From an uncultured bacterium (GTDB lineage Bacteria > Babelota > Babeliae > Babelales > Vermiphilaceae), in NCBI GenBank assembly GCA_963701085.1, contig OY969561.1:128001-192000 (forward strand): 64,000 bases of DNA. Reading direction: 5' to 3'. Positions within the stretch are counted from its first letter, which is position 1, and every line of letters begins with the position of its first letter. Made by a program: the position numbers. Shown in pieces: positions 27,001-33,000 of the stretch.

Positions 27001-30000
27001 AGCATAAGTATCAAAAAAATGTAGCGAGGGAACCATGAAAGTGGATTTGTTGATTAGCCAATATAGTTTTTAAGCAATTCTATAATTTTATTATAGTTGA
27101 CTATCGCTAACATAGTTAGGGCTAAGGCAATAATTGAAAATTTCATTGATTGCTGTTTTTGTGATTGTTGTTTCTGTTCCAATTTCTTTAAATATTCTCC
27201 AGGTGTTGCTTCATTTATTGATTGTCGGTAATGTTTCAAAAACTCATGATCTGTTAATTTTTGATTTTTCCAATAAGGTATATTGTCTAGAAGTGGAAGG
27301 AATGATTGATTTTTTTCTATAACGAGCATTTTAATGGCTTCCATATCCTCTATCATTGTACCACTCATTACTCTTATCTGTGTATAGTCAATAAAGTCAG
27401 ATAAAATGTCGTTTCTCATGGTAGGATATCCTTGAGTATTCATTAAGACTTTTGCACGATTTAAGCTACAACTAGTTTGATTTTTGATATATTTTACATA
27501 CTCAGTTATTTCCTTGGCATTCTTGGAATTTATTAGTTCATCAATATACTCATTGGTTGTTTTAAGGGAATCGTTTCTAATGCTCAGGTGCGGATTAAAT
27601 GGCTTGATTTGGTTTTCAGATGCTATAGTGATAAATCCTATATTTATTGTCAATAGAGCGATAAGATAATAATAGTTCATAAAATCCTCATTGTTAATTT
27701 TGATTATTCTTCTTTGTAATTATAGCACAGATGTGCTCAATGGTATAGGCGGATATGGTTAGGCTGGGGTTGGATTTTTCATCTTTTTCTTTTTCCAATG
27801 TTTTTTTTAGAAAAAGTCTGATATTTGTGCTAGGATAGACGCATAAAAATAAGCAAATTCTTTTTCCTTAAAAGGGCTTTTGGTATGTTTGATTTTCTTT
27901 CACAAAAATTTTCATCATTGTTTTCTGGTCTTGAAAGTACTAAAAAATTAACAGAACAGAACATTCAAGAAGCGCTTGAGGCGGTGCAAGAGGCGCTGTT
28001 GGAGGCCGATGTTCCGTATGGTGTGGTGCAAACATTCATTGCATCAGTAAAAAAGGATGTTGTTGGGCAGAAAATAGTGGGGGCGTTAAAGCCAGCAGAG
28101 CAGTTAATGACGGTGGTTCAGCGTAAGATTGTTGATTTTCTTGGTGGTGATGATGCAACATCGTCATTTTCATTTCCGTCAACCGTGATGGTTATGGGGC
28201 TGCAAGGTTCAGGAAAAACAACGACCATTGGTAAGTTGGCGTATAAAATTAAAAAAGATGCTGAAAAAAATAATATCACTCAAAAAATTCTTGTTGGTTC
28301 AATAGATTTTTATCGTCCGGCAGCAATAGATCAACTTGAAGTGCTTGCACGTCAGGTTGATGTTTCTTTTTACCGTGCACAAAGCACTGATCCAGTTGTG
28401 GCAGCAAAAGAGATTTTTTCTTTTGGCCACAACAATGGCTACCATGTTATTTTGCTTGATACTGCGGGTCGCTTGCACATTGATAATACCATGCTGCAGG
28501 AGTTGCAAGAAGTTGATGCGCTGCTGCGTCCTGCGTATAAAATGTTAGTTCTTGATGCAATGACAGGGCAAGAGTCGCTGGCGGTGGCAAAAGCCTTTGA
28601 TGATACAATAGGATTTCATGGGGCTGTTTTGACTAAGATGGATAGTGATACACGCGGTGGAGCGGCATTTGCATTCCGTTTTGTGTTAAAAAAGCCGATT
28701 GTTTTTGTTGGTGAAGGTGAAAAAGTTACCGATCTTAATACTTTTTATCCTGATCGTGCGGCAGAGCGTATTCTTGGTATGGGCGATATTCGCACCTTAA
28801 TGGAGCGTGCAGAAGAGAAGATTTCTGCTGCTGAGCAAGAAAGGGCGGAAAAGGCGCTTAATTCAGGAACATTCTCATTGCAAGACTTCGCCAATCAGAT
28901 GGCAATGATGAATAAGTTAGGTTCTCTTTCACAATTATTGAAATATATGCCAGGTTTGGGCGCAAAAATTTCTCCTGAAATGATTCAAAGAGGAGAAGTT
29001 GAATTGGTTAGATTCCGTGCAATTATTTCTTCCATGACATTAAAAGAGCGTCTCAATGCCAATATTCTCAATAATTCAAGAATGGAACGGGTTGCAAAAG
29101 GGGCGGGGGTGGCTGTTCCGGATGTGGCTAAGCTATTGAAACGCTTTGAAGAAGCGAAACAATATGTTAAGCTATAAAATAAGTTTGGCCTTATTAAAGG
29201 CCTCGTTAATAAGAAGATATGTACATATTTTTCAGTTTTAGTAAGGATACTTTCTATGGCAGTTAAAATTCGTTTGTCCCGTATTGGAACAACAAATCGA
29301 CCTTTCTATCGTGTTATAGCAACTGATGCTCGTAACAAAAGAGATGGTGAGATTCTCGCAAATGTTGGTACTTTTGATCCGATCAATGGTTCTGTAATTC
29401 AATTCCATGAAGATATTTATCAGGCATGGTTGGCTAAGGGTGCAATTGCGACAGATTCAGCAAAAAAAGTTTATCGTTTGTACAAAAAATCTGGTACATC
29501 GACCATAGCTCCCGCTGCAGCTGTAGCAAAAGAATCTGTTCAAGCAGAAAAAACTGCAGAAGAAGCAGTATAAGGCGATAGCATGATAAAAGAATTGGTC
29601 ACTTTTGTAGTGCAGCAATTGGTTTCGCATCCACAAGACGTTGTCGTGAGTGTTACTGAAAAAGATGATATAAATCTTTTTGAAATCAAAGTATCACCAG
29701 AAGACCGAGGACGTGTTATTGGAAAAGAAGGGCATACAATTAAATCATTGCGTGCTTTGATTGATGTAGCATCACCTTATGGAAAAAAAGTTTCACTTGA
29801 ACTGTCTCGGTAATCCTTCGATACACCCCTACGGGGCACTCAGGATGAGCGCAAAATATAATGAATATATCAATTCTTACTGTTTGTGATCAGTTATATG
29901 AGCCATTTGTGCATACCAGTTTGGTTGGACGTGCGCAAGAAAAAGGGATTGTACATATCGATGTACAATCGTTTTTTACGTATGTACAGCCAAAATCGCG

Positions 30001-33000
30001 CATTGATGCGCCTACTTTTGGTCCCGGAGCAGGGATGCTTATTCGTCCTGATGTTGTTCAAAAGGCAATAGAGGATAAAGAGGCTCGTTATGGTAAGGCA
30101 TTTAAGATTTTCTTTTCGCCCCGTGGTGAAAAAATGGATCAGCGTGTCTTTGAAACTATTGCAGCTCGAGCTCAGGAGTTGGGCCATTTGATGATTATAC
30201 CTGCGCGATATGAAGGAATGGATGCGCGTGTAGAAGACGAATACGCAGACATGATTTTATCCGTGGGTGATTTTGTTATTATGGGTGGCGATGTTCCGGC
30301 AATGTTACTCATTGAAGGCGTGCTACGCTTAATGCCTCAGGTTGTAGGTAAAGAAGAATCAGTGTGCCGTGAATCGTTTAACGGTCCGTTCGTTGATTTT
30401 CCATCATATACTGAGCCTGTTGAGTGGAAGGGTAAGCGAGTTCCTGACGTGCTTCGTTCCGGTAATCATGCAGCTATTGAAAAATGGCGCAGTGAACATT
30501 CGGTACAAAAGACCGTACGGGAGCATTTTTTATGGTTACGCTCTCAGGCACTTACTGATAATGATAAAAAGTTAGCGCGTCAGTATATTCCTTCTCATTA
30601 TGTCGCTCTTATGCACAGCGATGTGCTTGTTGGGCAAGAGAGAAAGCCTGGTTTTACATCGGTGACATCTATTGATATTCATGATATTGCACGGTCATCA
30701 AAGACGTATGGTGTAAAAGAATTTTTTATTGTAACACCATTGCTTGATCAGCAAAAAATTGTTCAAAAGATGCTTGATTTTTGGAAAAAAGGAATTGGGT
30801 TTGAGTACAATAGGTGTCGTTATGATGCCATTCAATTGGTACAGCTTATTGAATCTCTGAATGAAGTTATTAAAAAAATAGAAGAACGTGAAGGTAAAAA
30901 GCCGCTTGTTGTGGCAACATCAGCTCAGCTCGGTGATGCACAGCAGGTTGTTTCTTTTTATGACCAAAAAAAGGTATGGGCAAGTGATAGGCCGGTATTG
31001 ATGATTTTTGGTACAGGCCAGGGGCTTTCGCCATCAATCATTGAGCAATGTGATTATCTTTTATTGCCGATTGATGGGTTTTCTGAGTTTAATCATTTAT
31101 CAGTACGATCAGCCGTTGCGATTATTCTTGATAGGTGGCTTGGGGTTAGCCCACAACGAGCTTGAGGTAATATCATTTTTGGGTTATATTTAAAAATATT
31201 TATATGAACACGATGTGCCCTTCCGAAACTTTAGTAAAAGTAGGGCGAAAGAGGATCTCGCATGAAAGCAGCATTTTACACAAAAGAAACGATTCGCAGT
31301 ATTGGTATGAAAAACCGTGAACTTCCAACATTTGGAATTGGTGACACGGTTGTTGTATCGCAAAGTATTAAAGAAGCAGGAAAAGAGCGCTTACAAGCAT
31401 TCCAGGGCAATGTCATTGCAATTCACAAAAAAGGCGTATCGAGCACCTTTATTGTGCGTAAAATTGCTGACAATTCAATTGCCGTAGAACGTATTTTTCC
31501 TTTCTTTTCACCGCTTATTAAAGAAGTAAAAGTACTTGGTAAAGGTGATGTTCGTCGTGCTAAGTTATATTACCTTCGTAAAAGAGTTGGTAAAGCAGCA
31601 CAAGTTAAGCAAGTTGTTGAAACAAAAGCTTCAATTGCAAAACGCAAAGCAGATCAAAAAGCGACTGTTGCTGCGTCTGAGTAATTATGAATCCTATCAG
31701 AGGGGATTTGGTAGTCGTACGTTGCGTTATGATTATGTTTTGTTTGCTTTTTTCCTCTTGCACAAAACAACAATCATGTCGGCAAAAAAAAGGTATTGAA
31801 CAATTGCGTGATACAGCTCAAGAAGATTATCTTGATACTGTTATTCAGCAGGAAGCAATGCTCGTCGATGTTCCAATTCCCCTTTATGATGAACGCATTA
31901 TCCCATCATTTTCTCATGCTCCTGAATCCGATACATTAACTTTTGGTTATAAAAGTCCATTATCTCGCGAACAAGCAATTGATTTTTTTCTCAATCAGAT
32001 GGAACGATTAGGGTGGAAACATCTTGTCATTTTTGAAGGTGTTGAATCATTATTGCAGTTCGAAAGTCCCGATCGCTATTGCACTGTTGTTATAAAAAAT
32101 TCTGACATCTCATCATCAAGCACATGCATTTTTATCTATATAAAAAGAGCAAGCACGGATGCTTGCTCTTGATAGTGGGTTTAGGATGGAGAGTTATGAT
32201 GAATTTATCTTTTGCGCAGTTGTTTTTGTAACACGCTTATTTCTTCTTTTAATGCCTCATTTTCATCCATACAGTCTTCAAGTTGTTGTTTTATTGAACG
32301 ATGTTTTCGGCGTGCTTTGCGCGCTTGTTGTGTTTCATAATTATCATAATCGTATCTGCGACGACTACTTGCTACCATTGAACCAACTGCAAGTCCTCCT
32401 AGAGCACCATAGGCCGCTCCTCTGCCGCCACCAGCGAGTCCGCCAATTGCAGCACCAGTTAGGACAGGGGTTGTGATATCTCTACCATAATCACAATGAG
32501 TTGGGAGGTTAGCAAAGCCTAAGCAGCTGAAAAGAAAAAAAGTAACTTTTTTCATGTTTTTCATATGTGTAGTTCCTTTTATTCTCTATTTCTTGCTCGT
32601 GCAGCACGTCTTTCTTCGCGTCGAGCTTCACGCTCGTTTCTTCTCTCTTCTCTTCTTTCTCTTCCACCAAATAATCCGCCAACAACACCAGTAGTAACAT
32701 CAGCCGCACCTTCAACAGTACGTTCGGCCGCATAACCAGTATCTTCAACAACATCGCCTACATTGTAACCTGGTCTAATTCCGTGATGGTAAACACCAGC
32801 TTCATCATACCAACCAGCAGATACAGCCGAAACAGTTGCTATAGCAACGAATAATGCGATTAGTTTTTTGTTCATCATGAGTGGACTCCTTCAATTAATA
32901 CGGTTTATGAATTCTTCAATCTTCGATCTTCTTTTTTTCTTTGAATCTTTTCTTGTTTCTCTTGATATTTTCTTTGAGATTCTCTTCTTTGGTCTTCTCT

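Follow-up and report, generated by a model that had tools for sequence, protein, structure and literature searches.

A near-universal TrmD–Tm1570 fusion in the phylum Dependentiae is an orthologue of a known double-knotted SPOUT protein

The window that we analysed, a 64,000-nucleotide stretch of a Vermiphilaceae genome (contig OY969561.1), contains the gene order ffh–rpsP–KH–trmD::tm1570–rplS, with all genes on the + strand. This conserved block opens with ffh, which encodes the SRP54 GTPase (27885..29177; PF00448 at 4.4e-62, with PF02978 and PF02881), followed by rpsP for ribosomal protein S16 (29256..29573; PF00886 at 9.5e-17) and a gene for a small KH-domain RNA-binding protein of the KhpA type (29583..29813; PF13083 at 1.2e-18), for which the NCBIfam KH equivalogs scored under their cut-offs. 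The last gene of the block is rplS for ribosomal protein L19 (31262..31684; PF01245 at 7.9e-37). The rimM gene is missing from the cluster, and our open reading frame (ORF) and Pfam reading of the window thus bore out the genome-wide survey's note, which had described an rpsP–KH–trmD–rplS cluster without rimM. Among 28 sampled loci of the phylum, ffh lay upstream of rpsP in 25 (two others had no ffh within the fetched stretch and one stopped at a contig end), rplS lay downstream of the fusion in 24 and the KH gene was found in 18.

The fusion gene (29861..31165, +) is an ORF of 434 amino acids with an ATG start; its stop-to-stop frame is 438 amino acids, so the start is well defined. We assigned residues 1–236 (29861..30568) to a TrmD domain, the tRNA m1G37 methyltransferase, and residues 247–427 (30599..31141) to a Tm1570-type SPOUT domain, a putative SAM-dependent RNA methyltransferase. 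Residues 237–246 (30569..30598), the gap between both Pfam envelopes, form the interdomain linker. A Pfam profile search recovered the spans and E-values that had been noted earlier for this architecture: PF01746 at residues 23–220 (1.5e-37, 129.7 bits against a cut-off of 27.3) and PF09936 at residues 247–427 (6.8e-63, 212.2 bits against 22.6), the latter covering profile positions 3–181 of 182. The survey's note had also cited the TrmD equivalog NF000648 at 1.4e-60. We recovered this E-value, but its 204.2 bits fall below the curated cut-off of 220, which counts against our preferred explanation; the NCBIfam TrmD equivalog TIGR00088 passes instead, with 198.2 bits and a cut-off of 195.

Comparison with solved structures revealed a single polypeptide in which TrmD precedes Tm1570, the order seen in PDB 8B1N. 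Query residues 5–425 matched residues 9–426 of chain 8b1n_A in a single collinear stretch spanning its full length (E 1.8e-85), the N-terminal 236 residues matched about 25 solved TrmD structures (E 1e-27 to 1e-40) and the C-terminal domain had the Tm1570 fold, matching 3dcm_X at 1e-43. A protein database search with the fusion returned 2904 matches at E≤1e-10, and both Pfam domains were present in all of the best 120, as had been reported. The 434-residue protein is an orthologue of the published 'double-knotted' SPOUT fusion TrmD–Tm1570 (8B1N) and a typical representative of an established family. By homology to 8B1N, it would form a homodimer in which each chain carries two trefoil knots.

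The fusion architecture is therefore already known and is nothing new in itself, contrary to what the survey's note had implied: it was reported in 2007 from Desulfovibrio, Lawsonia and MLMS-1 (PMC1829167), and a family member was assayed in 2024 (PMC11187310) and crystallised as 8B1N. That member, from Calditerrivibrio nitroreducens (UniProt E4THH1, according to PMC11187310), shares with the window's protein its domain order, nearly its size (436 versus 434 residues), the SGNH motif and a position before rplS (locus L084). By contrast, the two Tm1570 domains are about 45% identical, the phylum's domains occupy their own clade in the Tm1570 tree, and the Calditerrivibrio fusion has rimM upstream whereas the window's does not. 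The N-terminal 236 residues and the rpsP and rplS operon context resemble those of canonical single-domain TrmD (Haemophilus influenzae and Escherichia coli), which differs in having rimM upstream and no C-terminal second SPOUT domain. In Thermotoga maritima, Tm1570 (PDB 3DCM) is a separate protein of 192 residues.

The survey's note had called the fusion universal in the phylum, and near-universal is the more accurate term. The whole protein was matched in 254 of 261 genomes and in 188 of the 189 that are at least 90% complete; six of the seven genomes with no match are 51–69% complete, and the seventh (G152) is 91% complete. The two-piece matches inspected, in five genomes, each reflect an insertion near TrmD residues 100–108 within a single frame of 473–517 residues. 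An assembly or gene-calling artefact might account for a fused frame, and in three genomes (G033, G109 and G186) the gene is indeed broken up by frameshifts or stops; in G116 it is cut by the contig end. However, uninterrupted frames of about 430–520 residues occur in the listed matches of the phylum, in the window's own finished single-contig genome and in independent public proteins, leaving an artefact with a virtually negligible chance.

Contrary to what had been implied, the fusion is not confined to this phylum: it is present in many others and is equally fixed in Deferribacterota, where PF09936 lies in a frame of fused size in 60 of 68 genomes. We collected 80 tm1570 loci from a species-genome collection, these being the top 80 among at least 598 matches. 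Of these, 33 were fused, 44 had trmD immediately upstream and 3 were cut by a contig end, and in none was tm1570 found away from trmD. The 61 loci from other phyla among these best 80 comprised 14 fusions, 44 genes directly downstream of trmD and the 3 cut by a contig end. The adjacency is not absolute, because trmD and tm1570 are far apart in Aquifex aeolicus (PMC11187310).

We built a tree of Tm1570 domains (quick search, LG+G4) from 160 rows, of which 7 that covered fewer than 150 domain residues were dropped, leaving 153. The phylum's domains formed one clade with 100% SH-aLRT. The fused or separate label required 27 changes on the tree, with 8 truncated rows carrying partial TrmD scored as fused, and at least 8 of the changes were forced by well-supported branches, so we rejected a single origin of all fusions. 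Within that clade, three rows of free-standing Tm1570 (P0124, P0126 and P0129) were considered as cases of fission and rejected as fragments; they lie on contigs of 1.0–2.1 kb, and one clusters with a 435-residue member.

Both domains retain the residues expected of their families. Across 29 rows spanning the phylum, the TrmD domain has the SGNH motif at residues 200–203 (S200, G201 and H203 invariant), and R116, Y117, E118, G119, D121, R123, S134, G136, G143 and D144 are also invariant, with D137 present in 27; these remaining residues presumably represent the acidic and arginine motifs of the knot, so that both types of TrmD motif are found. In the Tm1570 domain, 13 residues (H252, R278, W308, R320, T353, A355, G384, T385, G388, H412, V415, R416 and A418, in full-length fusion numbering) are invariant across 51 family members and across the same 29 rows. 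They include a conserved arginine and residues of a glycine-rich loop and an NHLSVRSA loop near the C terminus, two loops that we take to bind SAM. Mean identity to the query in the phylum's rows was 59.1% for the Tm1570 domain versus 57.0% for TrmD, and residues 222–246 were the least conserved (46.7%). The second domain looks catalytically intact, judging by the retention of all 13 family-invariant residues. The SG(H/N)H motif of TrmD contacts G37 (PMC11187310).

Biochemical data on the C. nitroreducens protein bear on whether the second domain might instead be catalytically idle, serving TrmD as an RNA-binding or dimer-stabilising appendage. In that study (PMC11187310), the TrmD domain alone kept 86% of the activity of the fusion, whereas the Tm1570 domain alone had almost none and, with a tRNA transcript as substrate, did not exceed the negative control; the authors suggest that it may aid substrate binding. 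An idle domain is nevertheless highly improbable given the invariance of the SAM loop and the predicted catalytic residues, the titles of PDB 3dcm and 8b1n as complexes with S-adenosyl-L-methionine, and the free-standing state of Tm1570 in most lineages (106 of the 153 tree rows). The proposal in the survey's note of a bifunctional tRNA-modifying enzyme is reasonable, and one half of it has been demonstrated: the only activity established for the C. nitroreducens orthologue is m1G37 formation by TrmD (PMC11187310).

RimM is absent from more than the cluster. In the window's 1.2-Mb single-contig genome, TIGR02273 returned nothing at E≤1, and we rejected a PF01782 hit of 16.4 bits at genome position 820523, within a 308-residue protein that has no NCBIfam match and is unlike RimM. 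RimM likewise had no match in the 261 genomes of the phylum. Our literature search did not find this phylum-wide absence in print, although supplements may hold Dependentiae data; in the parts available of two sources, RimM loss is mentioned for CPR bacteria only (PMC6744442, bioRxiv 10.1101/2024.11.29.625318). This absence, together with the position of Tm1570 between rpsP and KH (plus rimM in other phyla) on one side and rplS on the other, would fit an enzyme that methylates rRNA or acts in 30S or 50S assembly and that here may compensate for the missing RimM. By contrast, rimM and tm1570 share an operon in other phyla, where RimM domains were confirmed in loci L106 and L084 and KH and trmD lie about 500 bp apart in the majority of the 61 loci outside this phylum (among the best 80 of at least 598 matches). 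T. maritima also matches both the RimM and the PF09936 profiles, and the recurrence of fusion specifically with the tRNA enzyme points to a tRNA substrate common to both. We therefore consider a role in rRNA methylation or ribosome assembly unlikely, although an rRNA target is conceivable because the operon also contains ribosomal and ribosome-assembly genes.

A further explanation is that Tm1570 takes over, as a non-orthologous enzyme, the role of TrmJ (Cm32/Um32) or TrmL (Nm34) in a phylum with reduced genomes. Consistent with this, TrmJ (TIGR00050) was found in none of the 261 genomes at E≤1e-20, in the window's genome neither TrmJ nor TrmL scored above its cut-off and the three SpoU genes resemble TrmH, RlmB and one further SpoU enzyme, and T. 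maritima, which has Tm1570, gave no TrmJ or TrmL match at the thresholds used. The domain itself is not a TrmJ: it scored 20.7 bits with TIGR00050 (cut-off 167.15) and 19.3 with NF041077 (cut-off 350), and it is 16–23% identical to this tRNA 2'-O-methyltransferase (PDB 4CNF and 5GRA). Elsewhere, however, the families are found together instead of being mutually exclusive. Of 50 genomes from other phyla that carry Tm1570, 31 had a TrmJ homologue (28 over the curated cut-off) and 37 had a TrmL-like gene at E≤1e-25 (4 over the stringent cut-off), counts that are descriptive only, as most of these genomes are metagenome bins and related to each other. The 50 genomes derive from the 61 non-phylum loci (among the best 80 of at least 598), with L075, L083, L090, L112, L117, L121, L122, L125, L127, L130 and L131 left out. 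Complementarity with TrmJ as a general rule and complementarity with TrmL were both rejected on these counts. Because so many Tm1570 genomes also hold those enzymes, Tm1570 probably does not just take the place of either, and we regard the replacement reading as distinctly improbable.

With high confidence, we favour an orthologue of TrmD–Tm1570 that combines m1G37 formation with a second SAM-dependent RNA methyltransferase and whose fusion arose from the gene order trmD–tm1570–rplS. By homology to the C. nitroreducens enzyme, the TrmD domain would make m1G37 on tRNAs with G36-G37. The Tm1570 domain would be the second methyltransferase, with ribose 2'-O-methylation as its most likely chemistry, a reading that also draws on a prediction based on conserved arginine and serine residues (PMC1829167). 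Its substrate is most likely tRNA, because in the loci collected its gene always adjoins or is fused to trmD, and the domain probably acts at a site other than those of TrmJ (position 32) and TrmL (position 34), because the family co-occurs with both. Loss of the intergenic stop in the widespread order trmD–tm1570–rplS probably created the fusion, which was probably fixed in the ancestor of the phylum; rimM, normally just upstream of trmD, was probably lost in that same ancestor.

Interest in the fusion has centred on its being the first doubly knotted protein. Our analysis slightly narrows the question of its second target through the link to trmD in all loci studied, the conserved active site and the co-occurrence with TrmJ and TrmL. 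The fixation in this phylum and in Deferribacterota and the phylum's lack of RimM are modest points of distribution, which our literature search, centred on Dependentiae, did not find in print. One possibility, which we put forward tentatively and consider rather doubtful, is that the Tm1570 domain installs a methylation beyond those of known bacterial enzymes (not Gm18, Nm32 or Nm34) on the G37-type tRNAs of TrmD. If so, the fusion would link two modifications of the anticodon arm within a single binding event, and the phylum, with its fixed fusion and with TrmJ, TrmL and RimM absent or undetected, would be a natural system in which to hunt for the target.

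The fusion gene, trmD::tm1570 (window positions 29861–31165, + strand), is an ORF of 434 codons whose ATG start lies four codons past the preceding in-frame stop, giving a stop-to-stop frame of 438 aa. Pfam placed tRNA_m1G_MT (PF01746) on residues 23–220 (1.5e-37) and Methyltrn_RNA_4 (PF09936), the Tm1570 domain, on residues 247–427 (6.8e-63), which bears out the order of TrmD then PF09936 described in the genome-wide survey's note. The TrmD equivalog named there, NCBIfam NF000648, scored 204.2 bits, under its cut-off of 220; it was a second NCBIfam TrmD equivalog, TIGR00088, that the fusion matched above cut-off (198.2 bits versus 195). 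The gene order is ffh, rpsP, a KhpA-type KH gene, the fusion and rplS, all on the + strand. Immediately 3' of rplS, an ORF of 161 aa (31687–32172, + strand) matched no Pfam family at E ≤ 0.01. Beyond it, three small ORFs of 119, 99 and 104 aa lie in a row on the minus strand (32205–33219), each with a hydrophobic N terminus and an Arg/Glu/Lys-rich tail; they resemble a paralogous set of small secreted proteins.

Comparison with solved structures gave as its top match 8b1n_A, the 436-residue TrmD–Tm1570 chain of Calditerrivibrio nitroreducens, which has the same two-domain order and aligned in one collinear stretch over fusion residues 5–425 (E = 1.8e-85). The same protein's Tm1570 domain, solved on its own (8ri0), and Tm1570 of Thermotoga maritima (3dcm, 1e-43) ranked next, ahead of about 25 ordinary TrmD structures. 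The crystal structure of the C. nitroreducens protein was reported in bioRxiv 10.1101/2023.03.13.532328, and passages of PMC11187310 (2024) show that this protein forms homodimers and methylates tRNA-Leu(CAG) at G37, count 66 PF01746–PF09936 proteins and distinguish four arrangements of trmD and tm1570: distant, adjacent, overlapping and fused. As early as 2007, a passage in PMC1829167 listed fusions of TrmD with the COG4752 (Tm1570) SPOUT domain in Desulfovibrio vulgaris (DVU0836), Lawsonia (LI0220) and the deltaproteobacterium MLMS-1, and predicted a 2'-O-ribose methyltransferase from conserved Arg and Ser residues of that domain. The window's gene is an ordinary orthologue of this already published fusion protein.

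The note reported the fusion in every sampled genome of the phylum, and it proved nearly universal there. Near-identical public proteins go by the name 'Candidatus Babeliales bacterium'. A whole-protein search of the phylum's species genomes gave matches in 254 of 261, and in 188 of the 189 that are at least 90% complete; among the matches listed, nearly all span residues 1–430 in frames of about 430–520 aa. Seven genomes had no match, six of them 51–69% complete and one (G152) 91% complete. Five two-piece matches that we inspected (loci L022–L026 of genomes G149, G144, G131, G164 and G127; family codes f18 and f19) contain an insertion near TrmD residue 100–108 within a single frame of 473–517 aa. 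We also observed that the TrmD and Tm1570 halves occupy two frames overlapping by about 20 nt in G033 (L028/L031), that the gene has frameshifts or stops in G109 (L027) and G186 (L029/L032), and that it is cut by a contig end in G116; the broken frames of G033, G109 and G186 may represent real fission, decay or assembly error. The fusion was present in all 28 loci sampled from 15 of the 21 family codes in the phylum; 27 of them have rpsP upstream, 24 have rplS downstream and 18 have an intervening KH gene. Where no separate KH gene is present, the rpsP frame is longer, reaching 139–148 aa stop to stop (L036, L043, L049 and L050; also L044, L052 and L045). The KH query did not match these frames, suggesting an S16 extension of another kind.

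A fusion specific to the phylum was not borne out. In a language-model atlas, the query adjoins two-domain clusters from Thermodesulfobacteriota and Synergistota, and one fused representative is assigned to Dadabacteria/Thermodesulfobacteriota records. When one genome per species was scanned, at least 598 stretches proved to encode a relative, and we retained the 80 best. Nineteen of these are 50–63% identical to the query and all 19 are fused; 8 have titles naming Dependentiae, Babeliales, TM6 or Babelota, and 11 have other phylum labels or none. Eight records titled 'uncultured Pseudomonadota', 'Campylobacterota' or 'Saccharimonadales' (L058, L061, L063, L065, L067, L069, L070 and L071) have the phylum-type operon, with a fused gene and no rimM slot, at 50–60% identity to the window's domain, and their bins are probably mislabelled. 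The remaining 61 loci, from Thermodesulfobacteriota, Myxococcota, Binatia, Cloacimonadota, Deferribacterales, Thermotogae, Halanaerobiales, Chloroflexota, Fusobacteriaceae and others, comprise 14 with a fused gene, 44 with a separate trmD frame directly upstream and 3 cut by a contig end, with rplS next in nearly all. In Deferribacterota, the phylum of Calditerrivibrio, PF09936 was found in 65 of 68 genomes (G271, G276, G288 and G311–G375), 60 of them in fused-size frames (421–486 aa), which matches the fixation seen in the window's phylum. Among 153 Tm1570 domains placed on a maximum-likelihood tree, those of the window's phylum form one clade (SH-aLRT 100). The tree needs 27 changes between fused and separate states, and well-supported branches force at least 8 of these, indicating that the fusion formed or broke many times, starting from adjacent genes.

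The absence of rimM from the cluster, also reported in the note, extends to the whole phylum. The RimM N-terminal domain (PF01782) was matched in none of the 261 phylum genomes and in 10 of 14 control genomes, namely all 10 bacterial ones; TIGR02273 (RimM) had no match in the 1.2-Mb single-contig genome that holds the window. The expected site of rimM in the window is a 47-bp spacer (29814–29860). In other phyla rimM itself separates the KH gene from trmD, as confirmed by Pfam at one Desulforhopalus and one Calditerrivibrio locus. Because rimM and tm1570 coexist there, we rejected Tm1570 as a RimM substitute. RimM loss has been reported for CPR bacteria; the main-text passages on RimM loss that we met, supplements aside, made no statement on Dependentiae.

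When the C-terminal 190 residues were scored against every 50%-identity representative, 912 relatives were found at E ≤ 0.001; among the best 150, 106 are 150–235 aa long and 27 at least 380 aa. Thirteen residues are invariant between the window's domain and 50 free-standing members, and the same 13 are invariant across 29 rows spanning the phylum. They fall in motifs such as D272-x-H274-D275-x-x-R278, G384-T385-x-x-G388 and H412-L413-x-V415-R416-S417-A418. Mean identity to the query is alike in the two domains (59.1% for Tm1570 versus 57.0% for TrmD). This conservation, at the level of TrmD, and the invariant residues argue for an active enzyme of the SpoU-like 2'-O-methyltransferase type; the fold itself does not reveal its target.

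Three SpoU-family genes occur in the window's genome, of which one resembles TrmH and another RlmB; no TrmJ or TrmL was matched there above cut-off. At E ≤ 1e-20, TrmJ was matched in 0 of 261 phylum genomes and was likewise unmatched in T. maritima, which suggested Tm1570 as a TrmJ replacement. Outside the phylum this idea fails: a TrmJ homologue accompanies Tm1570 in 31 of 50 Tm1570-bearing genomes of other phyla (28 over cut-off), and a TrmL-like gene in 37 of the 50 (E ≤ 1e-25), counts that show only that co-occurrence is common, these genomes being mostly metagenome bins and non-independent. It is more likely that Tm1570 has a target of its own. That its gene always lies beside trmD and has fused with it repeatedly favours tRNA over rRNA.

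The survey's observation is correct and the fusion was already published, and what is new is limited to its distribution: RimM is absent phylum-wide, Tm1570 co-occurs with TrmJ and TrmL, tm1570 is fused to trmD or directly 3' of it in every locus examined, and the fusion is fixed both in the window's phylum and in Deferribacterota.
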